From positions 1,024,001 to 1,088,000 of the forward strand of contig OZ244044.1 of assembly GCA_965215275.1 (NCBI GenBank): 64,000 bases of DNA. Reading direction: 5' to 3'. The notes under the pieces were generated by a model. It saw nothing but the letters and a program-made list of their open reading frames with translations. It had not been told where the DNA came from and ran no database searches. Every line of letters starts with the position of its first letter. Positions within the stretch are counted from its first letter, which is position 1. Source of the DNA: Thermodesulfobacteriota bacterium (GTDB lineage: Bacteria; Desulfobacterota_D; UBA1144; Nemesobacterales; JAJCZQ01). Shown here piece by piece: positions 2,782 through 62,182 of this stretch. The position numbers and the translations under genes are program-made.

Positions 2782-2967
2782 CAACTCAGTCCTTTCAAAG
2801 AAACGTTGAGCTAACTTAGGCCCTTCCGTCAGATATGATCCTGTTAAAAACATCGTCTTTGTTCACTCAGCATAGCTGCCTGTATAATCCCCAGTATTTT
2901 ATCAAGACAGAGGTCCTTTCCTCTTGAAACTTTAAACAACTGATATAGGGTTTTATAATATACGGTC

Positions 2968-4563: not shown

Positions 4564-4788
4564 AACCTTTGTTATAGTCCAGCCCTGATATCATCTTTTG
4601 GGAACTATATAGGAAAGTTGACAAAAATGAGGGGATTACCCTGAACGGTTGACAGGCTGTATTTTACCTTTATTATTATCAGTGGGAACTGAATACCGTC
4701 AATTACAGTGAACGGGATAAAAAGAGAATGATCCGTGCGTCCTGAATATCATTGTCATTGCAGGAAAGGAAAGAAAAGGAAATTACAC

Positions 4789-4818
4789 TTGACATTCGTT
4801 CATAATACGAAGTAAAAT
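4789..4818 (+). promoter_or_regulatory. sigma70-type promoter with dyad TTCGT-N7-ACGAA in the spacer
   Basis: TTGACA 4789-4794, TAAAAT 4813-4818, inverted repeat 4795-4811. Confidence 0.65.
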
Positions 4819-4827
4819 ATCAGTGTT

Positions 4828-7800
4828 ATGAAAAATTTCATGAAAAATTCAAACATAAAAACAAAAACACGTAGTTCCATTACCCCCCCCCCGTGTATAC
4901 CTGACCTTTCAGTCTGGTATAAGTGTTTTTTAAGAACAATGTTTAAGATAATCCCCCCCCCATCTAAGTCATTACTAACTTTAGTCTTTATTCTTCTGTT
5001 TATACTGGTAATAGCTGCAAAAGGGCAGAGCAGCCTGGAAGAAACATTATCTGAATGCAGAGGCATCAGTGCAGACACGGAAGATCCGTTATACGGATGT
5101 CAGTGGCATCTGAAGAACACGGGGCAGTTAAGTTTTTCCGGAAATAGAATAACTGCAGGAGAAGATATAAACATAGAGGGGGTGTGGAACGAAGACGTAT
5201 ACGGTACCGGAATTAACGTAGCAATAGTAAGTGACGGTATCGACCTTTCACATGAGGACCTTTCTGCAAACGTCCGTTCCGGACCGAACTATGATCTTTC
5301 TGACAGTTCATCCTTTAGTGGGACAAGAGCGGCAGGAGTAACAGCAGCAACTGGATATAACGGACTGGGAGTAAGAGGAACAGCACCTGGTGCGAGTATA
5401 TACAGTTACAGGTTATCCGGTGATATCAGTGAAGCGGACGCGGTGGTCCGTAATAAGGAAATAACAGCAGTATCGGTTAACGGCCGGGGATCTGAGGACG
5501 GAGCTTTTTTTCAGGAGGCTTCATCTTCCTGGGAAGAAGGAGTGGAACTTGGTATAAAGCAAGGGTTTTACGGTAAAGGGGTGTTTTACGTCCGGGGAGT
5601 AGGGGACGGGCATGAAAGAGGAGATCAGGCTAATTTTAATGAATATTCCAGCTATTACGGAGTAACAGCCGTCTGTTCAACGGACGGCTTTGGAAAGAAG
5701 AGTATTTTTTCAGAAGAGGGAGTAAATCTGTGGGTATGTGCACCTGGTTCTGATATTGTAACTACTGATAACAAAAACGATTACGTTGTAACTTCCGGAA
5801 CATTTCTATCAGCTTCACAGGTTGGAGGAGTGGCAGCACTGCTGAGAGAGATAAACGGGAATCTGAGCTGGAGGGATATAAAGCTTATACTTGCGGGTTC
5901 AGCACGGCAGAACGATTTTTTTGATATGAGCTGGGAGACTGGAGCTGTTAAATACGGTTCTGATACGGAAAGATATAATTCTAATCCTAAGTATGGTTTT
6001 GGCGTGGTAGACGCAGAAGCAGCTGCAGAACTTGCAAAAAGCTGGAAAGGCGTTGGAGAGATGAGGACCATTACAGCTTCTTCAGATAATGAACTGACAA
6101 TTCCTGATGGAGATGGAGAAGCGGACGGGGTCCTTGTTTCCAGACTTATGATACCGGACCTTGAAGAGGTAACATTTACGGAGTTCGTTGAAGCTGAGCT
6201 TGTTCTTTCGTGTGACTGCTTACAGGACCTTAATATACAGATAACCTCTCCTTCCGGGACAGTATCTGAACTTGTGCGGGAGGTTGTAAGGGGATCTTCG
6301 AATGAAGAAGAAAACTGCGTCAGTTACCTGAGAAGAACACATCGTTTCGGGTCGGCAAGACACCTCGGAGAAGACCCTTCCGGAGAATGGATCCTTCATA
6401 TAACTGATACTGCTTATGGAGATGAAGAAAATGAAGAAAACACCGTTACCCTGCACTCATGGAGCGTTAAGGTGTATGGACATTTTTATCAGGGATCTGG
6501 CAGTGAGATCACTCCTAAAGCTTTAACCTTCGGCGGTGCGACGATCCCAACCCAGAATTATTTTGTAGGAGAAGCAATAACACCAGTAATGCTGCCTGAG
6601 GCAACCGGGGCAAGCGACATAACATACAGTTTTAATCCTGCTTTAGCAAGAGGATTGGAATTTGATCAGGATACCCGAACTATAAGCGGAACACCAGCTA
6701 TTACTCATGTGTCAGGTCGTTTGTATTCATATGTTGCAAGAGGTGGCGGACGGATTGTAACTATACCTTTTACTATTAGAATTAGCCCTCGACGAGTGCC
6801 GACCTTCGGCAATCAGACGGTAGAAAATCAGGTTTTTGTTAATGGTTCAGCAGTAACGTTAACTCTGCCTCAGGCTACCGGAGGTAACGGAACTTTAAAT
6901 TACAGTTTAACTAATAGTATAGGTGATCCAATTAAAATTAATGGATTGGATTATAACGAAAACACCAGAACGTTAAGTGGAACGCTCAACGTTTCTCCAA
7001 GTGGATTACCTATAACTCAAACTTATACCTACAAGGTAACTGATGATGACGGTGATTCTGACAGTATTACTTTCTCTATTACTATTACTATAGAAGCGAA
7101 CTCAGAGCCGAGCTTTGGTGGTCAGTCTATCCCAAATCAGATATATATTGAAGGGACTACGGCAAACCTTCCAGTAACACTGCCTGCTGCAACGGGAGGG
7201 AATGGGACTTTAACTTACAGTTTAACCCCTTCATTACCAACTGGATTGAGCTTTGAGCCTGCTACCCGAGTGATAAGTGGAACAGCACCTGATCCTACTC
7301 CGTTTACTTTTAGAACTTTCACATATAAGGTAACGGACAGTGATGGAGATAAAGTTGAGCTGACGTTCATAATACAAATAATAAAAGACACCCAGCCAGC
7401 CTTTAATAATACGATAACAGATAAGGTGTATTATACGTTTACAGGAGTAACGGAAACGTTACCTGAGGCAGCAGAAAATAATAATCTACCTTCAACTTAC
7501 AGTTTAGTTCCTGCATTACCTGATGGACTGATCTTTACCCCTGCTACCAGAGAGATAACAGGAACACCAACTGCTGCAACGTCTGAGACTGATTATACGT
7601 ATACGGTTGCTGATCTAAATGGAGATACGGACGAGTTAACGTTCAGTATTACTGTAAGAGCAGAACCGAACACAATGCCGACCTTCGGAAGTGAAACTAT
7701 AGATAACAAGGTATATATAAACGGAGAAGCAGTAAATGAAACACTGCCTGAAGCAACGTCAGGGAATGCTCCATTAACTTACAGCTTAACTCCTGCCTTA

Positions 7801-8379
7801 CCTGCCGGATTGGATTTTACCCCTGCTACACAAGTTATAAGCGGAACACCGACTACTGCAACGTCTGAGACTGATTACACGTATACAGTAACGGACGCAG
7901 ATAATGATACAGATGAACTGGAGTTCAGTATTACAGTGGAAGAAGACAGCGAACCGGACTTCAGCGTGACGACGATAGAAGATCAGGTGTACATGGGGAG
8001 ATCAATAAGGTTGCCGGTAGCAACGGGAGGGAATGCACCGTTAGTATACAGTATAACGCCTCCCTTACCTCCTGGGTTGAGATTGGACAGAAACACAGGG
8101 ATAATAAGCGGGACGCCCGCGAGTGCGTCGTCTGAGAGGACCTACACGTACACGGTAACGGACAGGAATGGAGACATTAAAGAGTTGACCTTCAGGTTCA
8201 GTGCAGCGGCTCCGCCACCGACAGGTAGTGATTCAGGCGGAGGTGGAGGAGGATGTGCCGTATCAGAGCAAAGCAGCGTTGATGAAGATATTCCTGGAGT
8301 AATGGCATGTCTGATACTTATACCCGTGTCGGTATTGATCAGAAGGAAGGGAAGAGCTCGGATAAGGACCTGGCAATGA
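4828..8379 (+). CDS. S8 subtilase homolog (triad D/H/S all substituted) + P-domain + 6 putative Ig repeats + C-terminal sorting signal; in frame
   Basis: IVSDG, FSGTRAAG, RGVGD, SGTFLSASQVGG; P-domain (HLGEDPSGEW...LHSWSVKVYG); LPxGLxF..TRxISGTP repeats; GGGGGGCAVS-TM-RRKGR. Alternative start ATG 4939. Poly-C tracts at 4883-4892 and 4953-4961. Confidence 0.9.
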   Translation: MKNFMKNSNIKTKTRSSITPPPCIPDLSVWYKCFLRTMFKIIPPPSKSLLTLVFILLFILVIAAKGQSSLEETLSECRGISADTEDPLYGCQWHLKNTGQLSFSGNRITAGEDINIEGVWNEDVYGTGINVAIVSDGIDLSHEDLSANVRSGPNYDLSDSSSFSGTRAAGVTAATGYNGLGVRGTAPGASIYSYRLSGDISEADAVVRNKEITAVSVNGRGSEDGAFFQEASSSWEEGVELGIKQGFYGKGVFYVRGVGDGHERGDQANFNEYSSYYGVTAVCSTDGFGKKSIFSEEGVNLWVCAPGSDIVTTDNKNDYVVTSGTFLSASQVGGVAALLREINGNLSWRDIKLILAGSARQNDFFDMSWETGAVKYGSDTERYNSNPKYGFGVVDAEAAAELAKSWKGVGEMRTITASSDNELTIPDGDGEADGVLVSRLMIPDLEEVTFTEFVEAELVLSCDCLQDLNIQITSPSGTVSELVREVVRGSSNEEENCVSYLRRTHRFGSARHLGEDPSGEWILHITDTAYGDEENEENTVTLHSWSVKVYGHFYQGSGSEITPKALTFGGATIPTQNYFVGEAITPVMLPEATGASDITYSFNPALARGLEFDQDTRTISGTPAITHVSGRLYSYVARGGGRIVTIPFTIRISPRRVPTFGNQTVENQVFVNGSAVTLTLPQATGGNGTLNYSLTNSIGDPIKINGLDYNENTRTLSGTLNVSPSGLPITQTYTYKVTDDDGDSDSITFSITITIEANSEPSFGGQSIPNQIYIEGTTANLPVTLPAATGGNGTLTYSLTPSLPTGLSFEPATRVISGTAPDPTPFTFRTFTYKVTDSDGDKVELTFIIQIIKDTQPAFNNTITDKVYYTFTGVTETLPEAAENNNLPSTYSLVPALPDGLIFTPATREITGTPTAATSETDYTYTVADLNGDTDELTFSITVRAEPNTMPTFGSETIDNKVYINGEAVNETLPEATSGNAPLTYSLTPALPAGLDFTPATQVISGTPTTATSETDYTYTVTDADNDTDELEFSITVEEDSEPDFSVTTIEDQVYMGRSIRLPVATGGNAPLVYSITPPLPPGLRLDRNTGIISGTPASASSERTYTYTVTDRNGDIKELTFRFSAAAPPPTGSDSGGGGGGCAVSEQSSVDEDIPGVMACLILIPVSVLIRRKGRARIRTWQ

Positions 8380-9257
8380 GGTCCTTTCAGGGACGTTCAT
8401 GAGAGAGGACCGCGTAATGGTCCTCCCATGTACCCGTCCGCTTAAGGTAAAGGCAGCGTTACCGCGCACTGGACCGTCCCTGTATTCTGATGAGACGACG
8501 GGAGAAGCAGAGGAAGGCATCAGCACGGGTGATCTTCCGGACGTTCCGTTTACTTAGGTATACCGTTCCCCGTTATAATCCCGTTGTCAGCGTTCCCGGC
8601 AAGATACCTTTACAGGGAAAGGGAGCAGGTAGATATAAAGGCAGGTACACGTCCGGGGATCAGTCCTGAAGGTCTGAAAAGGTTCCGTATCGTGTAATTC
8701 AGCCATGGGGAGGCGTTCACGGTTCCTGGAACGGGAGGAGTTCAACGTCATGGACACGCGGACTTGCCGCTTCGGGGAAAGCGGGGACCCTGACCGAAGA
8801 AGGCAGGGAAGTGATCAGGGTTATACTGACCATGCCGACCGGTCTGAGACAGATAAGGATAAGGTCAGTAAAGGAAAAATAAAAGGTAAACCTCGGGTGA
8901 AACCTGCCGCCGCTGATCATAAAGGAAAAACAACGGGCAATGGATAGATCATCAAGGATGTTTTTAAAAACGGGATAAATCCCGCATAAACGACCTGAAA
9001 AAAACAACTAAATAAGAACTGAACAAAAGGTTTAAATTGGCAGCAGGTCCTAAAGGAGATCATTTTATAAAAGAAGTTAATGATCAAAGAAAATTATGGG
9101 ACCTGTCAACTTTCCTTTATAGTTTCCCATCTTTCATATAAGATGGGAACATTAAAAAGACGGTACAGATTGACACCTTCGTAATATACATATATTATTA
9201 AGGTCAGTGGTTTCTCTAACAGAGTTCTGAGATAAAAACAGGCTTTATCTTTTAGAC

Positions 9258-17555: not shown

Positions 17556-17672
17556 CGTCCTTATCTGATCATGTATTTAAGATCTGCCGGTAATTATAAT
17601 TGGGACTTATATACTTTAGTACCCAACAAAAGATTTAACAGATAAATAGTATTGTAATATAATTACAGAGGA

Positions 17673-19064
17673 ATGGATAGTGAAAAGAGGATAATTAAGC
17701 AGACGAGGACGGAACGCAGAGTGGCTGGATTGAATCACCCTTCAACTCATAAGGGTTTGGAAAGGACTTTGGACCAGCTTACCTATCTGTATAACAGCGC
17801 TCTGGAAGAAAGGAAAGAAGCGTACAAAAAATACAAGAAGCTGAAGAAGTGGGGTTTGTCAGAAGAAAGATTACAGATGTATTTCTACCCACAATGGGAG
17901 TTTGGTACTTCTTACAACAAGAAGAACAGAGTTAAATATCTGGATACAGTTTATGAAGCAGTTAACAGGTTAGTAAGTAATATCAGACCTTGCGATGATC
18001 CTGTTAACTGGAGAGAGTTAACAAAACAGGAGCTAAAGAAGAAGTCAGTCAGTTACGAAGATCAGGCGAAGTCACTGACTGAGATAAGGAATGATGTTTT
18101 ATTGAAAGGATTCAACAAGGCAGGCGTTCAGGGACAGCAAAGGACGTTAAAGAGAGTGGATAAGGCTTACAGTGATTATATTAAAGGATTGAGAGGCAGT
18201 CCGAGATATAAGAACAGCAGCAGGAAGGTAAGAAGTTTTGAAACATATACATGGGGAAATGTAAAGAAAGGTGAGAGAAGGACATATTTAACGGTAAAGG
18301 GAGTTGGGAGGATCTCATTCAGAGGAAGCATACCGGAAGGAACAAAATACATAAGGATATTAAGAACAGCTTTAAGAGTAGAGATCCAGTTTATTTACGA
18401 AACAATAGCTGGAGAGGACAGAGGACTGGACAGACCTGTAGGAATGGACCTTGGAGTAAGGAACAGGATTGCTTTATCAGATGGGTCGTTTTACAAGGGA
18501 ACTGAAGTAAGCAGAAAGAAAGACAAAAGAAAGCAAAGAGCAGTTTCAAGAGCTGAGAAAAGTTCGAACGGCAGAAAGAAGAAGATAAAGCTGCTTGGGA
18601 AGGAACATGCAAGAACAGCAATGAAGGAACATAACAAAGTTCACAGGTTAACTACAGAACTGTCAAGAGCGTATAATTTTGTTATATCAGAAGATCTGAG
18701 ATTAAGGGATATGAGCAGATCGGCAAAGGGGAACGTGGGAGATCCGGGTAAGAAAGTAAAGCAGAAATCTGGATTAAACAGGTCCTTACGGGAACAGCAA
18801 TTGGGCAAGGTATTAAATCAGCTTGAATACAAGGTTAAAAGCACTGGTGGCAAGCTGATCAGGAACCCGGCTCAATATACGTCACAGACCTGTTCTGAGT
18901 GCGGATACAGAGATAAAAGGAACAGAAAAGGAGAAGTATTTAAGTGTGTGTATTGCGGTCATAAAGACCATGCAGACACGAATGCAGCTATAAACATTTG
19001 CAATAGTGAAAAGACACTATGTCGGGTGGGACAGCCAGACTTGAGTTCCCGATGCAAGCTGTAA
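17673..19064 (+). CDS. tnpB: RNA-guided endonuclease TnpB family protein
   Basis: N-terminal YLYNSALEER helix, GSPRYK, RuvC-I GMDLG, RuvC-II ISEDL, KSGLNRS, YTSQTCSECG/CVYCG zinc finger, RuvC-III HADTNAAINI. Confidence 0.93.
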   Translation: MDSEKRIIKQTRTERRVAGLNHPSTHKGLERTLDQLTYLYNSALEERKEAYKKYKKLKKWGLSEERLQMYFYPQWEFGTSYNKKNRVKYLDTVYEAVNRLVSNIRPCDDPVNWRELTKQELKKKSVSYEDQAKSLTEIRNDVLLKGFNKAGVQGQQRTLKRVDKAYSDYIKGLRGSPRYKNSSRKVRSFETYTWGNVKKGERRTYLTVKGVGRISFRGSIPEGTKYIRILRTALRVEIQFIYETIAGEDRGLDRPVGMDLGVRNRIALSDGSFYKGTEVSRKKDKRKQRAVSRAEKSSNGRKKKIKLLGKEHARTAMKEHNKVHRLTTELSRAYNFVISEDLRLRDMSRSAKGNVGDPGKKVKQKSGLNRSLREQQLGKVLNQLEYKVKSTGGKLIRNPAQYTSQTCSECGYRDKRNRKGEVFKCVYCGHKDHADTNAAINICNSEKTLCRVGQPDLSSRCKL

Positions 19065-19154
19065 ATGTTTTATCAAAAGAGAACGGGGAATTAAGAGGGA
19101 CTCTGCTTGCAGAACAGTATGTTTAGTACTTGTGTACTAAAGTATATAAGTCCC
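19020..19154 (+). ncRNA. Putative omega-RNA scaffold overlapping the tnpB 3' end
   Basis: Position typical of TnpB omega-RNAs. Stems: GTCGGG/CCCGAT (19021-19053), TGCAAGC/GCTTGCA (19053-19059 with 19105-19111), TTTAGTAC/GTACTAAA (19122-19141). Boundaries are inferred. Confidence 0.5.
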
Positions 19155-34291: not shown

Positions 34292-34428
34292 CTCTGCACA
34301 GTAAGGCTGTGCCTGCCTTTTGCCAACCTTCTTCTCAGAACTCGGCGACCTGCCTTGGTACTTATCCTCTCACGAAACCCGTGAGTCCTCATCCTTTTTT
34401 TTACGTGCGGCTGATATGTTCTTTTCAT
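34279..34428 (-). CDS. rpmH: 50S ribosomal protein L34 (not in ORF track)
   Basis: Manual translation: [49 protein letters not shown]. Confidence 0.95.
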
Positions 34429-43501: not shown

Positions 43502-44162
43502 ATCCTTCCATCTCCTTTAAACTGTTTAAATTATCTTCATAATAATAAACCATAAAGAACTTTTTTAACAGATAAATTGCGGCCATACACCTTCAGCAGC
43601 TAAGTTAGCTCAGCCGCTTAACCTTCAGATCTTTTAGCCTTTCTGCTGAATTTAACTGACTGCTTTGTCTATCCGTGCTGACAACTTGTACAAGGTTATT
43701 TCAGCAAGTCCTCAGCTGTGAAAGACTTGCGGGATAAGTAAAGGTGTCTTTGGAATTTTCAAGAGGTTAAAAATCACCGGTCTTGTTTAATTATCATCTC
43801 AGCGTTCAAAGCATCCTTTTGCGTCTGGTCTTCAAGCTTCATCTTATCAGGTCAGCAGCGTCCTGATCTCTGCCGGCAGTGTAACATTAAATCTTTTCTC
43901 GAATTCAGTGATGCTTTTATGCTTATCGTGAAAAAAGCAGGCAATATTGAACCATTTTCTAATAATGGTCAGGTCTGCTTTGGCACTTTCCCATTCACTC
44001 AGGCACAGTTCCATAATTGCCCGTTCATAGCAGTTGTGATATTCATCTGGATCAATTTCTACTGCCTTGTCAAATTCCTTAATTGCTTCTCTGTATTGCC
44101 AAAGTCGGGTTTTAGCAAATCCTCTTTCAGTATAGTATTTTGCATCTTGCGGGTCGGTTCTA

Positions 44163-45233
44163 CTATTTTATCAAAGTCTGCAGTCGCTTCCTCATGTAAC
44201 CGTAAAAGTCCCAGGTCGCTTCTTTGTATTGTCCAAGTCTGTATTTGGCAGACCCTCTGTCATTATAAGCTATTACCAATTGCGGGTTGATCTCTATTGC
44301 CTTGTCAAAGTCTTCGACCGCTTCTTTATATTGCCCAAGGCTGACTTTAGCAAGTCCTCTGTTATAGTACTTTTTTGTAATTACTTTCTTGTAGTGTTTA
44401 AGTCTGTTTTTGGCAAGCTTTTTCTGATAGCGATCTTCTGATAATTGCTGGTTGGTATCTATTGCTTTGTTAAAGTATTCGATCGCTTCCCTGTATTGCC
44501 CAAGGCTGCATTTAGCACACCCTCTGTCATAGTAGGATCTTGCTTTATCAAAGTCTTTGGTTGCTTTCTTGTATTGCCCAAATTTAGTTCTGACAAACCC
44601 TCTTTGATAGGTAAGCCCTATAGGGTAGATCTCTATTGCTTTGTCAAAATCCTTGATTGCTTCTCTGTATTGCCTAAGTTCATAATTGGCAATCCCTCTG
44701 AGATAGTTAAGTCTCATATGCGTATATATCTGGTCTAAAACCACCGATTCATAATTGGTAATCCCTATCTGATAGATAAGCCCTATAGGGTAGATCTCCA
44801 TTGCTTTGTCATAGTCCTTGATTGCTTCTCTGTATTGCCTAATTTTATAATTAGCAATCCCTCTGTTACAGTAAGCTGCTGCAAATTGTGGATAGACCTC
44901 TATTGCTTTGTCAAAGTCCTTGACCGCTTCCTTGTATTGCCCAAATTTAGTTTTGCCAAGCCCTCTACGATAGTAGAACTCTGTATCTTGAGGGGGGGGG
45001 GAATTGGTTCCTATTGCTTGATACAAGTCCTTGAGCGCTTCCTTGTATTTCCCAAGCTCGTTTTTGGCAATCCCTCTATGATAGTAAGCTCTTGTAAATC
45101 GGGGATTGAGATGGATCGCCTCATCTAGATCATCAATAGCTTTTACGACCTCTCCTTTGTTCAAAAAGTCGTTTCCGCGTTCAAAGTATCCTTTTGCATC
45201 CTTTGGTTCTGATAAGGTATTTAATCTGTCCAT
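44163..45233 (-). CDS. Tetratricopeptide repeat protein with internal C10 tract; degraded 3' end
   Basis: Repeated YxxRGxAxxxLGQYxEAxxDFDKAIEI units. A further out-of-frame TPR (AKYYTERGFAKTRLWQYREAIKEFDKAVEIDP) lies at about 44040-44145. Confidence 0.85.
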   Translation of the reverse strand: MDRLNTLSEPKDAKGYFERGNDFLNKGEVVKAIDDLDEAIHLNPRFTRAYYHRGIAKNELGKYKEALKDLYQAIGTNSPPPQDTEFYYRRGLGKTKFGQYKEAVKDFDKAIEVYPQFAAAYCNRGIANYKIRQYREAIKDYDKAMEIYPIGLIYQIGITNYESVVLDQIYTHMRLNYLRGIANYELRQYREAIKDFDKAIEIYPIGLTYQRGFVRTKFGQYKKATKDFDKARSYYDRGCAKCSLGQYREAIEYFNKAIDTNQQLSEDRYQKKLAKNRLKHYKKVITKKYYNRGLAKVSLGQYKEAVEDFDKAIEINPQLVIAYNDRGSAKYRLGQYKEATWDFYGYMRKRLQTLIK

Positions 45234-57901: not shown

Positions 57902-58010
57902 TGTTGAACTGAAAAAACATTGACTGCCGCCGAAAAACGCTTTTTAAATAGGGAATTATATATTTATCCACTTGACATTCGTTTATAATACGAAGTAAAA
58001 TATAAATGTT

Positions 58011-61000
58011 ATGAAAAATTTCATGAAAAATTCAAACATAAAAACACGTAGTTCCATTACCCCCCCCCCGTGTATACGTGACCTTTCATCTGGATATAAG
58101 TATTTTTTAAGAACAATGTTTAAGATAACCCCCCCCCCCATCTAAGTCATTACTAACCTTAGTCTTATTTATTCTGTGTTTGATAGTAATAGCTGCAAGA
58201 GCAGAGAGCAGCCTGGAAGAAACATTATCTGAATGCAGAGGTATGAGTGCAGATGTGGAAGATCCGTTATACGGATGTCAGTGGCATCTGAAGAACACTG
58301 GGCAGTTTATTTATTCAGGAAAGGAAATAACAGCAGGAGAAGATATAAACATAGAAGGAGTGTGGAACGAAGACGTATACGGTACCGGAATTAACGTAGC
58401 AATAGTAAGTGACGGTATCGACCTTTCACATGAGGACCTTTCTGCAAACGTCCGTTCCGGACCGAACTATAGTTATTCTGAAAGAAATAATTCTGAAGAG
58501 AACAGTTCTGAAAAAGATAGTTCAGAAAGAGATGATCTTTCAGACGGTTCATCCTTTACCGGAACACGAGCGGCAGGTGTTATTGCAGCAACTGGATATA
58601 ACGGACTGGGAGTAAGAGGAACAGCACCGGGTGCGAGTATATACAGTTACAGGTTATCCGGTGATCTCAGGGAAGCGGACGCGGTGGTCCGTAATAAGGA
58701 AATAACAGCTGTATCGGTTAACGGCCTGGGATCTGAGGACGGAGCTTTTTTTCAGGAGGCTTCAACTTCCTGGGAAGAAGGAGTGGAACTTGGAATAAGT
58801 AAAGGGTTTTATGGTAAAGGAGTGTTTTACGTCTGGGGAGCAGGGGACGGTCATGAAAGAGGAGATCAGGCTAATTTTTCTGAATATTCTAATTACTACG
58901 GCGTAACTGCCGTTTGTTCAACTGACGGTTTTGGAAAAAAGAGTATTTTTTCAGAAGAGGGAGTAAATCTATGGGTATGTGCACCTGGTTCTGATATTGT
59001 AACTACTGATAACAAAAACGATTACGTTGTAACTTCCGGAACATTTCTATCAGCTTCACAGGTTGGAGGAGTGGCAGCACTGCTGAGAGAGATAAACGGG
59101 AATCTGAGCTGGAGGGATATAAAGCTTATACTTGCGGGTTCAGCACGGCAGAACGATTTTTTTGATCCGAGCTGGGAGACTGGAGCTGTTAAATACGGTT
59201 CTGATACGGAAAGATATAATTCTAATCCTAAGTATGGTTTTGGCGTGGTAGACGCAGAAGCAGCTGCAGAACTTGCAAAAAGCTGGAAAGGCGTTGGAGA
59301 GATGAGGACCATTACAGCTTCTTCAGATAATGAACTGACAATTCCTGATGGAGATGGAGAAGCGGACGGGGTCCTTGTTTCCAGACTTATGATACCGGAC
59401 CTTGAAGAGGTAACATTTACGGAGTTCGTTGAAGCTGAGCTTGTTCTTTCGTGTGACTGCTTACAGGACCTTAATATACAGATAACCTCTCCTTCCGGGA
59501 CAGTATCTGAACTTGTGCGGGAGGTTGTAAGGGGATCTTCGAATGAAGAAGAAAACTGCGTCAGTTACCTGAGAAGAACACATCGTTTCGGGTCGGCAAG
59601 ACACCTCGGAGAAGACCCTTCCGGAGAATGGATCCTTCATATAACTGATACTGCTTATGGAGATGAAGAAAATGAAGAAAACACCGTTACCCTGCACTCA
59701 TGGAGCGTTAAGGTGTATGGACATTTTTATCAGGGATCTGGCAGTGAGATCACTCCTAAAGCTTTAACCTTCGGCGGTGCGACGATCCCAACCCAGAATT
59801 ATTTTGTAGGAGAAGCAATAACACCAGTAATGCTGCCTGAGGCAACCGGGGCAAGCGACATAACATACAGTTTTAATCCTGCTTTAGCAAGAGGATTGGA
59901 ATTTGATCAGGATACCCGAACTATAAGCGGAACACCAGCTATTACTCATGTGTCAGGTCGTTTGTATTCATATGTTGCAAGAGGTGGCGGACGGATTGTA
60001 ACTATACCTTTTACTATTAGAATTAGCCCTCGACGAGTGCCGACCTTCGGCAATCAGACGGTAGAAAATCAGGTTTTTGTTAATGGTTCAGCAGTAACGT
60101 TAACTCTGCCTCAGGCTACCGGAGGTAACGGAACTTTAAATTACAGTTTAACTAATAGTATAGGTGATCCAATTAAAATTAATGGATTGGATTATAACGA
60201 AAACACCAGAACGTTAAGTGGAACGCTCAACGTTTCTCCAAGTGGATTACCTATAACTCAAACTTATACCTACAAGGTAACTGATGATGACGGTGATTCT
60301 GACAGTATTACTTTCTCTATTACTATAACGGACCTGGCCTTTGAACACTATCCTCTAACTCATCTGATTTTTGTAGCAGGGAGGCAAGTAACACCACAAG
60401 TAGAGCTACCTGAAGCAACTGGAGGGACTGCTCCATTAACTTACAGTTTAACTCCTGATTTACCTCTTGGATTGAGTTTTAATGAAGTTACGCGGGTTAT
60501 AAGTGGCACACCAACTATTGGGATATCTGATACTGATTATACATATACTGTTACTGACGCAGATGGAACTACGGTGGAGTTTACATTTATTGTTCAGATA
60601 AGAGCAAGTTTTGATAATGTAACGATAAATAATAAGGTGTATATAGTCGGTACAGCAGTAACGGAAGTGCTGCCTGAGGCAATTGGACATAATGAAACGG
60701 TAACCACCTACGGTTTAACCCCTACATTACCAGCTGGACTGGACTTTAACACGGCTACCCGAGAGATAAGAGGAACACCGACTACTGCAACGTCTGAGAC
60801 TATGTATACATACAGAGTAGATGACGGAAATGGATTCACTAATGACGATTTAACTTTCAGTATCACGGTAAGGGATGCAACTGTACCTACTTTCAGTGGT
60901 GAGACTATAGATGATCAGGAGCATACAGCAGGGGTTCAGATAACACCAGTAACGCTGCCTGAGGCAACTTCAGGAGATGCTCCGTTAACATACCGTTTAA

Positions 61001-61851
61001 CCCCTGCCTTGCCTGATGGATTGATCTATAACAATATCACCGGAGTTATAAGCGGAACACCGACTGCTGCAATGTCTGAGACTATGTATACATATACAGT
61101 AACGGATAATGATGGAGATACGGATGAACTGACGTTTAATATTGAGGTAGCAGCAAGCTTCAGCAACGTAACGATAGAAGATAAGGTGTATATAGCAGGT
61201 ACAGCAGTAACGGAAATGCTGCCTGAGGCAACTGGACATAATGGAACGGTAACCTACAGTTTAACCCCATCATTACCAGCTGGACTGGACTTTAACACAG
61301 CTACCCGGGAGATAAGTGGAACACCTTCTGCTGCAACGTCTCAGACTACTTATACATATACAGTTACTACTGGTGCAGGAGGACCTGCACGAACTTTGAC
61401 ATTCAGGATAACGATAGAAGAAGACAGCGAACCGGACTTCAGCGTGACGACGATAGAAGATCAGGTGTACATGGGGAGATCAATAAGGTTGCCGGTAGCA
61501 ACGGGAGGGAATGCACCGTTAGTATACAGTATAACGCCTCCCTTACCTCCTAGGTTGAGATTGGACAGAAACACAGGGGTCATAAGCGGGACGCCCGCGA
61601 GTGCGTCGTCTGAGAGGACCTACACGTACACGGTAACGGACAGGGACGGAGACATGAAAGAGTTGACCTTCAGGTTCAGTGCAGCGGCTCCGCCACCGAC
61701 AGGTAGTGATCCAGGCGGAGGTGGAGGAGGATGTGCTGTATCAGAGCAGAGCAGTGTTGATGAAGATATTCTCGGAGTAATGGCATGTCTGATGCTTATA
61801 CCTGTATCAGTAGTTATCAGAAGGAAAAGAAGAGCTCAGATAAAGATGTAG
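58011..61851 (+). CDS. S8 subtilase homolog (triad substituted) + P-domain + 7 putative Ig repeats + sorting signal; frameshifted at C11 (58129-58139)
   Basis: The ATG58011/ATG58116 frame stops at 58143-58145. Removing one C joins it to the main frame and restores the signal peptide seen in gene 2. Motifs: IVSDG, FTGTRAAG, SGTFLSASQVGG, GGGGGGC-TM-RRKRR. Confidence 0.87.
58471..58530 (+). repeat. 4 x 15-bp degenerate tandem repeat (SYSER/NNSEE/NSSEK/DSSER)
   Basis: agttattctgaaaga, aataattctgaagag, aacagttctgaaaaa, gatagttcagaaaga; absent from gene 2. Confidence 0.8.
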
Positions 61852-62182
61852 TAATGCGGTCCTTTCTTAGGACACTTAACTAACTGAGATCTTTCCCATC
61901 AGAATATCTGCTGGCTGCTTATGGAAGAAGCTATATATCTTTGTTAAAGTCCTTTTTTGATATTCAATTTTCTTATTACCACAAGGATTTAACTACAAGG
62001 TTTTCCACCCGATACGAATATAATCTTGTTAAAAACATCTTTTTTATTCATTTGGCGCAGTTACATATATTATTCCCTTTTAAATAACTGTAATTCGTAA
62101 CGACCTTATTATCTGCCCACTGCTTCATTTACATAACTTTCTATATCGGGAATTTTCGTGCAATGTATAAAATATAATAAAA

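Follow-up and report, generated by a model that had tools for sequence, protein, structure and literature searches.

A predicted surface-protein gene in a transposase-less, IS1595-ended cassette of a Thermodesulfobacteriota bacterium, and its place among 57 probably switchable paralogs

The cassette between ppiD and smc

The window analysed here is a stretch of 64,000 nucleotides from an uncultured Thermodesulfobacteriota bacterium (GenBank assembly GCA_965215275.1, contig OZ244044.1; C1:1024001-1088000 of the genome referred to here as G000, where C1 is a single 1.99-Mb contig), and the element in question is a 4528-bp cassette within it that carries gene 2, which encodes a predicted surface protein with a subtilase (S8) domain. 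A first-pass annotation had described a transposase-less unit of 4.5 kb, inserted between ppiD and smc, with 24-bp ends that agree at 22 of 24 positions, an 8-bp target-site duplication, a promoter and a whole pseudo-subtilase gene; coordinates, flanks and domain matches bear this description out, with a SurA/rotamase (PpiD-like) gene and smc as the neighbours. Coordinates are those of the window unless given as genome positions. The features of the cassette, in order, are as follows.

4592..4599, no strand: left target-site duplication CATCTTTT; its last base differs from the empty-site allele CATCTTTC
4600..4623, + strand: left terminal inverted repeat (TIR), IS1595 type; the first 37 bp of the cassette share 89% identity with the left end of an IS1595 copy (genome position 1100815-1102101)
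4789..4818, + strand: Sigma70-like promoter, TTGACA-18-TAAAAT, 11/12, a consensus match only
4828..8379, + strand: cargo gene 2, 1183 aa from the first ATG (alternative ATG at 4939), from the open reading frame (ORF) and domain matches
4883..4892, + strand: poly-C tract 1 (C10), between the first and second ATG of gene 2
4953..4961, + strand: poly-C tract 2 (C9), within codons of the predicted signal peptide; ON (in frame)
5203..5961, + strand: Peptidase_S8 domain; compared with furin, it has D>S, H>S, N>D (oxyanion) and S>F
8573..8928, + strand: captured, decayed host DNA; 8573-8668 (69%) and 8764-8928 (77%) match the two edges of genome locus 154377-155887
8921..9127, + strand: IS1595-derived right end, 208 bp, including the TIR at 9104-9127; 84% identical to the insertion sequence (IS) at 1100815 and 79-83% to copies of MITEs (miniature transposable elements with inverted repeats)
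9128..9135, no strand: right target-site duplication CATCTTTC, from the sequence and the empty site

The left end reads GGGAACTATATAGGAAAGTTGACA and the right end, read inward, GGAAACTATAAAGGAAAGTTGACA; no longer inverted repeat is listed for the 64-kb window. The flanking 8-mers, CATCTTTT and CATCTTTC, agree at a level (at least 7 of 8 positions) that was reached by 1.2% of 43,056 random pairs of end-flanks from the same genome. Between the ends lie promoter-like boxes and one long ORF, that of gene 2; a second Sigma70-like site (11/12) is found at 4649-4676, and five such sites were found against 1.4 expected. None of the genome's 28 IS1595 (PF12762) or 23 TnpB (PF07282) matches falls inside the cassette, and no structured RNA was matched in it by Rfam at E<=0.1. 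The 550-bp tail was considered as a transposase remnant, an idea that was rejected since the tail has no transposase similarity and consists of host-derived DNA; two decayed chromosomal pieces lie between the stop codon and the IS-derived right end, and thus the cassette captured host DNA. Both junctions are spanned by contigs of runs X3 and X6 that show no differences there, and the cassette is therefore not an assembly artefact; these runs may represent the source sample and are not independent support for the biology.

Evidence for insertion at this site comes from runs X1 and X2 of one study, which represent a sister strain whose flanks are approximately 97% identical to those of G000 (for X1, 73 of 2461 bases differ). 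In each run, one contig joins window position 4598 to 9139 with CATAG between them, such that the ppiD-smc junction of the sister strain has one CATCTTTC and no TIRs, the usual downstream sequence continuing after it with one base added. It follows that the boundaries of the cassette coincide exactly with the repeats, and that position 4599 changed to T afterwards. The first-pass annotation had proposed, as a check set beforehand, that a relative should show an uninterrupted junction with a single 8-mer, and had named gene-less relatives that keep both repeats, or junctions away from the repeats, as outcomes that would speak against it; X1 and X2 both show the uninterrupted junction, without repeats and with exact boundaries. 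Contig cover in X1 and X2 is also near zero over 8548-8781, which hints that this part of the cassette tail is absent from the sister strain, although near-zero cover proves nothing. Among GTDB relatives the site is uninformative, as ppiD and smc are separated by another gene in G003 and lie far apart in G002.

A second full copy (the twin), at genome position 1496306-1500591, aligns with the cassette end to end, with homology ending at the TIRs, and is bounded by a perfect 8-bp duplication of its own, TTTCTTTT, from a different target. Identity between the two is 97% over the 5' 260 bp and 99% over the 3' 768 non-coding bp, and ranges from 50 to 95% per window in the coding part, with gaps in repeat number. 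Inner junctions and the host-derived tail are common to both copies, and damage to the ends is copy-specific (in the cassette, the third base of the right end is changed; in the twin, the left end has one inserted base). The host genes around the twin site are 69 bp apart in G002 versus 6340 bp in G000, where the gap holds one more paralog too. Partial copies without ends are found near 34410, 401802 and 408568-412933.

These comparisons also bear on a history in which an IS1595 element or MITE inserted between ppiD and smc first and the gene was swapped in later by homologous recombination with the twin, the unit itself never having transposed. Gene conversion is clearly active in the family (see below) and both cassette ends are homologous to resident IS or MITE copies, which speaks for such a swap; however, homology to the IS is confined to just 37 bp on the left and stands at 84% on the right, a poor substrate, and the two full copies share inner junctions and the host-derived tail yet differ in their duplications. 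We consider this history very improbable.

IS1595-type ends and the spread of the gene family

An iterated end profile applied to the genome identified 208 sites with a score of at least 15, the cut-off used, as compared to 4 on one strand of a shuffled genome. Flanks within one mismatch were seen for 25 end pairs, 19 of them with perfect 8-bp duplications that are 91% AT; inside these pairs lie IS1595 copies with and without passengers, MITEs, tnpB-only units and the gene 2 cassette, in a genome with 28 DDE_Tnp_IS1595 matches. The left end of the cassette matches the two ends of the IS1595 copy at 1100815-1102101 at 24/24 and 23/24 positions, and the shared sequence covers the first 37 and last 208 bp of the cassette. 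This IS has a small ORF of about 61 codons behind its transposase gene, a decayed copy of which forms the right end of the cassette (8921-9090) and which is kept in MITEs too. The resemblance to tnpB element ends reported in the first-pass annotation is real and at the same time indirect, as both sets of ends belong to a genome-wide IS1595 end family: 18 of the 23 TnpB matches have an IS1595-type end on each side, many with perfect 8-bp duplications. We thus conclude that the cassette ends belong to IS1595 and not to tnpB, and that the tnpB elements borrow the same end family.

Two other classes of element were considered and rejected. IS200/IS605 and IS607 (tnpB) elements contain tnpB and/or an HUH or serine tnpA and have no terminal inverted repeats; the cassette has no TnpB match inside and has both TIRs and an 8-bp duplication. 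It is not an IS1595 transporter IS (tIS) either, as no transposase of its own stands beside the passenger. Taken together with the empty site and the twin, the finding of an IS1595-type element supports the earlier proposal of a mobile cassette that copies surface-protein genes around the chromosome, with IS1595 now named as the family, and gene 2 is very probably carried by an IS1595-ended mobile insertion cassette (MIC) that was placed by transposition.

Several other arrangements of these ends were observed. A tnpB-only element at window position 17602-19154 lies between 25-bp IS1595-type ends (24/25) with flanks TTATAATT and TTATAAAG. Pairs of MITEs of about 420-445 bp, with the cassette's end subtype, bracket 3-4.5 kb of other DNA at C1:17470-21955 and 1897941-1900957; the former has a perfect TAATATAA duplication outside its outer ends and looks like a MITE-bounded composite. 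IS1595 elements with a transposase plus one to three passenger ORFs and perfect 8-bp duplications are located at C1:675417-678070, 1002026-1005187, 1304051-1307389, 1516018-1519071 and 1812584-1815955.

Gene 2 is one of 57 paralogs with S8 and P domains detected by tblastn, which occupy about 163 kb or 8% of the genome. Two further paralogs in the window carry ends of their own.

57950..62077, + strand: older cassette with gene 3 (ORF 58180-61851); decayed IS1595-type ends of another subtype, and perfect TTTTAAAT at 57942-57949 and 62078-62085
2869..2892, - strand: solo inward IS1595-like end behind paralog gene 1 (ORF 481-2781), from the end profile

To score ends near paralogs, we used a profile trained only on non-S8 elements (score of at least 10, within 900 bp) on 55 of the 57 paralogs, two being dropped as no C-terminal tail was located, with 715 ORFs of at least 300 aa as controls. 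An inward-facing IS1595-like end was found near 29 of 55 paralogs versus 59 of 715 controls, a six-fold excess (p 2e-15), and outward ends were not in excess (11/55 vs 122/715, p 0.58). End-to-gene distances recur within subfamilies. When end pairs were picked automatically, flanks with at most one mismatch were obtained for 5 of 55 paralogs if a one-base shift was allowed, versus 0.6% of swapped pairs (permutation p 5e-5), and for 2 of 55 without the shift (p 0.01), in a procedure that missed gene 2 and its twin by choosing internal sites. Hand curation gave 12 two-ended copies, with zero or one flank mismatch in eight and two mismatches in four, which span different S8 clades and several end subtypes. 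These data indicate that the same IS1595 route probably accounts for much of the 57-gene family. The rival view is that only the gene 2 lineage, with two full and about three truncated copies, was moved by IS1595, and that the other paralogs spread by recombination or another route, the ends near them having inserted independently into the same AT-rich gaps. In its favor, no end is detectable at about half of the paralogs, some 200 ends exist in the genome, control genes also have one nearby in the proportion given above, and many paralog sites are rearrangement breakpoints relative to G002; by contrast, the excess is restricted to inward-facing ends, 12 copies from different S8 clades and end subtypes have both ends with a matching 8-mer, and distances recur within subfamilies. 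Restriction of the IS1595 route to the gene 2 lineage is accordingly judged unlikely.

Synteny was assessed against a 1.51-Mb contig (C17) of G002, approximately three quarters of that genome, at 51 distinct sites (two paralogs were unmapped and four shared a site). Flanks of paralogs are adjacent in G002 at 17 of 51 sites, including gene 1, whose flanking genes are 122 bp apart in G002 versus 2990 bp in G000. Paralog sites are thus often synteny breakpoints (17/51 adjacent vs 626/755 at baseline), which suggests that the S8 family or its ends drive rearrangement.

With regard to origin, the family had no match in 30 relatives (E<=1e-20) or in another 119 genomes from the phylum (E<=1e-60), in query-specific searches that included several incomplete genomes. 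The nearest foreign homologs with genomic context are 38-48% identical and were found at 24 loci (22 from Dehalococcoidia, one from Tepidiformaceae and one from Acidimicrobiia) plus four metagenome loci; some closer homologs (56-77%) in other assemblies were seen without context. Since the nearest homologs are mostly from Dehalococcoidia metagenome-assembled genomes, sequence similarity suggests that the family was acquired horizontally. At these 28 foreign loci, no paired ends were found with a profile tuned to the AT-richer G000, and long C/G runs were at most single.

Cargo protein, poly-C tracts and exchange among paralogs

The gene 2 product comprises a predicted signal peptide, Peptidase_S8 and P_proprotein domains, about six immunoglobulin (Ig)-like He_PIG repeats and a C-terminal tail with Gly-rich, Cys, hydrophobic and basic parts. 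While its S8-P region matches furin at E 1e-32, the catalytic Asp, His and Ser and the oxyanion Asn of furin are replaced by Ser, Ser, Phe and Asp, respectively, and an active S8 kexin-type protease can therefore be rejected on the basis of this S/S/D/F replacement of triad and oxyanion Asn. Only 6 of the 57 paralogs keep all four D-H-N-S residues, and one more has D-H-S with Asp at the oxyanion site; four different dead-site patterns occur in the family, with the replaced residues conserved within clades. In the dead clade, median dN/dS is 0.27 (405 pairs, 29 genes), a value by which these paralogs are under purifying selection. The gene 2 product is likely a surface protein with a dead protease domain, and the dead S8-P head on its Ig stalk would most likely serve ligand binding or surface shielding rather than cleavage.

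Runs of at least seven C upstream of the S8 domain are found in 49 of 57 paralogs, mostly just after an ATG. If ATG is taken as the only start, 11 of these tract-bearing copies, including gene 2 and its twin, are in frame and 38 are out of frame (the call for one of the 38, the paralog at 430604, is doubtful); 34 of the 38 stay open from tract to tail, and four have further breaks. Across the genome, C/G runs number 78 of length 6, none of length 7, six of length 8 and 133 of at least 9, and 77 of the 139 runs of at least 8 lie within 750 bp upstream of S8 paralog genes; the G002 contig has 19 runs of length 7 and none of at least 9. A pattern of this kind makes it quite likely that the family undergoes functional phase variation through its poly-C runs. 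A further 62 C/G runs of at least 8 lie elsewhere than in the S8 5' regions as defined; together with the absence of 7-mers in 2 Mb despite the presence of MutS and MutL, they make up a genome-wide contingency-locus pattern. One ORF in the window (44045-45233, - strand) with about 8-9 tandem repeats that resemble tetratricopeptide (TPR) repeats by sequence pattern has a G10 run near its start, at genome position 1068992.

Frameshifted copies and lost catalytic residues could also be taken to mean that the family is decaying debris, with poly-C frameshifts representing pseudogenization or long-read homopolymer errors and triad loss representing loss of function. Consistent with this, 38 of 49 tract-bearing copies are out of frame, four of them with further breaks, and homopolymer lengths are assembled values rather than raw reads. 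On the other side, tracts share one position downstream of the start codon, run lengths have a bimodal distribution that skips 7-mers, the 34 copies noted above retain kilobase-long intact frames, dN/dS is low, replaced catalytic residues are conserved within clades, and the sister strain also holds many copies, as S8-region depth in X1 is, as a rough guide, about 13-28 times that of the flanks. Decay as a general account is extremely improbable.

In a quick tree of S8 domains, gene 2 groups with two other paralogs (SH-aLRT 99) and not with its twin. Along the gene, 13 of 16 200-bp windows (5000 to 8199) are 100% identical to at least one of seven non-twin paralogs, with the partner changing over its length; the gene 2 coding sequence is a mosaic of paralog tracts. 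As recombination homogenizes the coding sequences, transposition explains the location of a copy and not its present coding content, and position would thus be inherited by transposition and content by recombination. Two distant paralogs, at C1:373163 and 1102333, have identical S8-P domains and different stalks.

A number of observations weigh against, or set limits to, an interpretation that combines transposition with switching. The empty site comes from a single study, and insertion in G000 rather than precise loss in the sister strain is argued by parsimony. Only two full copies of the gene 2-type cassette exist in the genome, 26 of 55 paralogs have no end with a score of at least 10, and at 34 of 51 sites the flanks are not adjacent in G002 (many of these sites are rearranged or unmapped), against a baseline conservation of 626 of 755, although this fits insertion followed by rearrangement at repeats. 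The search for both TIRs and a cognate transposase that had been proposed in the first-pass annotation yielded a second complete cassette and an IS1595 of the cognate type, but the transposase of that element (1100815-1102101), the sole one with the exact ends of the cassette, is frameshifted, and nine intact IS1595 transposases compared to its larger piece are 39-48% identical and belong to other end subtypes; present-day activity is thus doubtful, and the cassette is probably immobile in G000 now. ON/OFF calls rest on assembled homopolymer lengths, and tract indels in the run contigs may come from paralogs rather than from the gene 2 locus. MutS and MutL are present with open frames, which rules out loss of mismatch repair as the cause of the tracts. 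Finally, the tail was rejected as a Synerg-CTERM (TIGR04564) sorting signal (13.3 bits vs a cut-off of 22.5, E 0.066).

Even with these points taken into account, we find it likely that gene 2 sits in a transposase-less IS1595-ended cassette, moved in trans, and is one of 57 genes for a switchable coat. Under the mechanism we propose, an IS1595 element would have lost its transposase gene and acquired, between a left end of 37 bp and a right end of 208 bp, a promoter, a gene and some host DNA; a cognate transposase may then have acted in trans to carry the unit into intergenic gaps rich in AT, and other subtypes of IS1595 end may have done likewise, earlier, for other paralogs. Once placed, copies would exchange coding tracts by gene conversion and poly-C slippage would set each copy in or out of frame, such that a cell displays a minority of variants, as in Neisseria opa, with a head whose role is most likely ligand binding or surface shielding and not cleavage. 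We lean slightly towards a broader proposal, namely that a single protease gene, acquired horizontally, was expanded by a host-domesticated IS1595 system into a repertoire resembling that of antigenic variation, through 57 transposed sites, repeated death of the active site with the fold under selection, exchange of heads and Ig stalks by gene conversion, and selection of the displayed subset by one or two poly-C switches in each gene.

Comparison with known systems

MICs are described as passengers between IS ends that are moved in trans (PMC4337579, PMC3129680); examples are MIC231 of Bacillus cereus, with IS231/IS4 ends (as cited in PMC4337579, PMC3129680, PMC2266710), and the MICs of Xanthomonas that carry transcription activator-like effector (TALE) genes between Tn3 ends, with 55 TALE genes, 45% of the collection, located in MICs (PMC4337579). 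The cassette described here likewise has a passenger between IS ends, no transposase of its own and a target duplication, with a single-copy empty site, and is accompanied by several copies and solo ends next to members of one gene family. It differs from both examples in that its ends are of IS1595 (24 bp, with an 8-bp duplication) and not of Tn3 or IS231, and in that 57 copies occupy intergenic gaps of one 2-Mb chromosome, where each can carry a slippage tract; unlike the injected effectors of TALE MICs, its cargo is a predicted self-displayed surface protein.

IS1595 elements have ends of about 25 bp and AT-rich 8-bp repeats (PMC5704250, PMC12561309), with ISApl4 described as having 14-bp ends that begin with GGGG (PMC12561309), and the family includes the transporter IS MTnSag1 and tISCpe8, of 1.7-2.0 kb, with lincosamide-resistance cargo (PMC5704250). 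End length, AT-rich 8-bp duplications and passenger genes are shared with these transporter IS, and G000 also holds elements that combine transposase and passengers; the cassette, however, has no transposase, and its 3.5-kb cargo is far larger than that of MTnSag1 or tISCpe8. The protein has a kexin-like S8 plus P fold by sequence, as do CspC (NF040808) and furin/kexin, and has lost the triad as CspC has; at 21 bits against a cut-off of 675 it is not CspC, from which it also differs by its Ig stalk and anchor-like C-terminal tail.

Each element of the system is of a known kind, and the combination is new to the literature searched: no IS1595 cassette that seeds a 57-copy pseudo-protease family with gene conversion and tract switching was found in the open-access literature, subscription papers being outside the search. 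With a 3.5-kb gene between ends of 37 and 208 bp, the cassette brings IS1595 into the group of families that have large-cargo cassettes, and it points to a large, selected pseudo-subtilase family of predicted surface proteins. The route by which dispersed, individually switched surface-gene families were scattered is rarely visible afterwards; here, ends, duplications and an empty site have been preserved among copies that differ in age, so that the origin can be read from the sequence.

A close parallel is Neisseria opa, a family of about 11 copies of an outer-membrane adhesin gene, each switched by CTCTT repeats in signal-peptide codons, with recombination between copies (PMC4534519). Dispersed complete copies, a repeat in signal-peptide codons and recombination between copies are also features of the G000 family, in which switching is deduced from sequence; the latter differs in having 57 S8-P-Ig copies, poly-C runs, of which a gene often has two, and many copies flanked by transposon ends. 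If the repertoire reading is true, it shows directly, in an uncultured bacterium, how opa-like dispersed variable families can originate.

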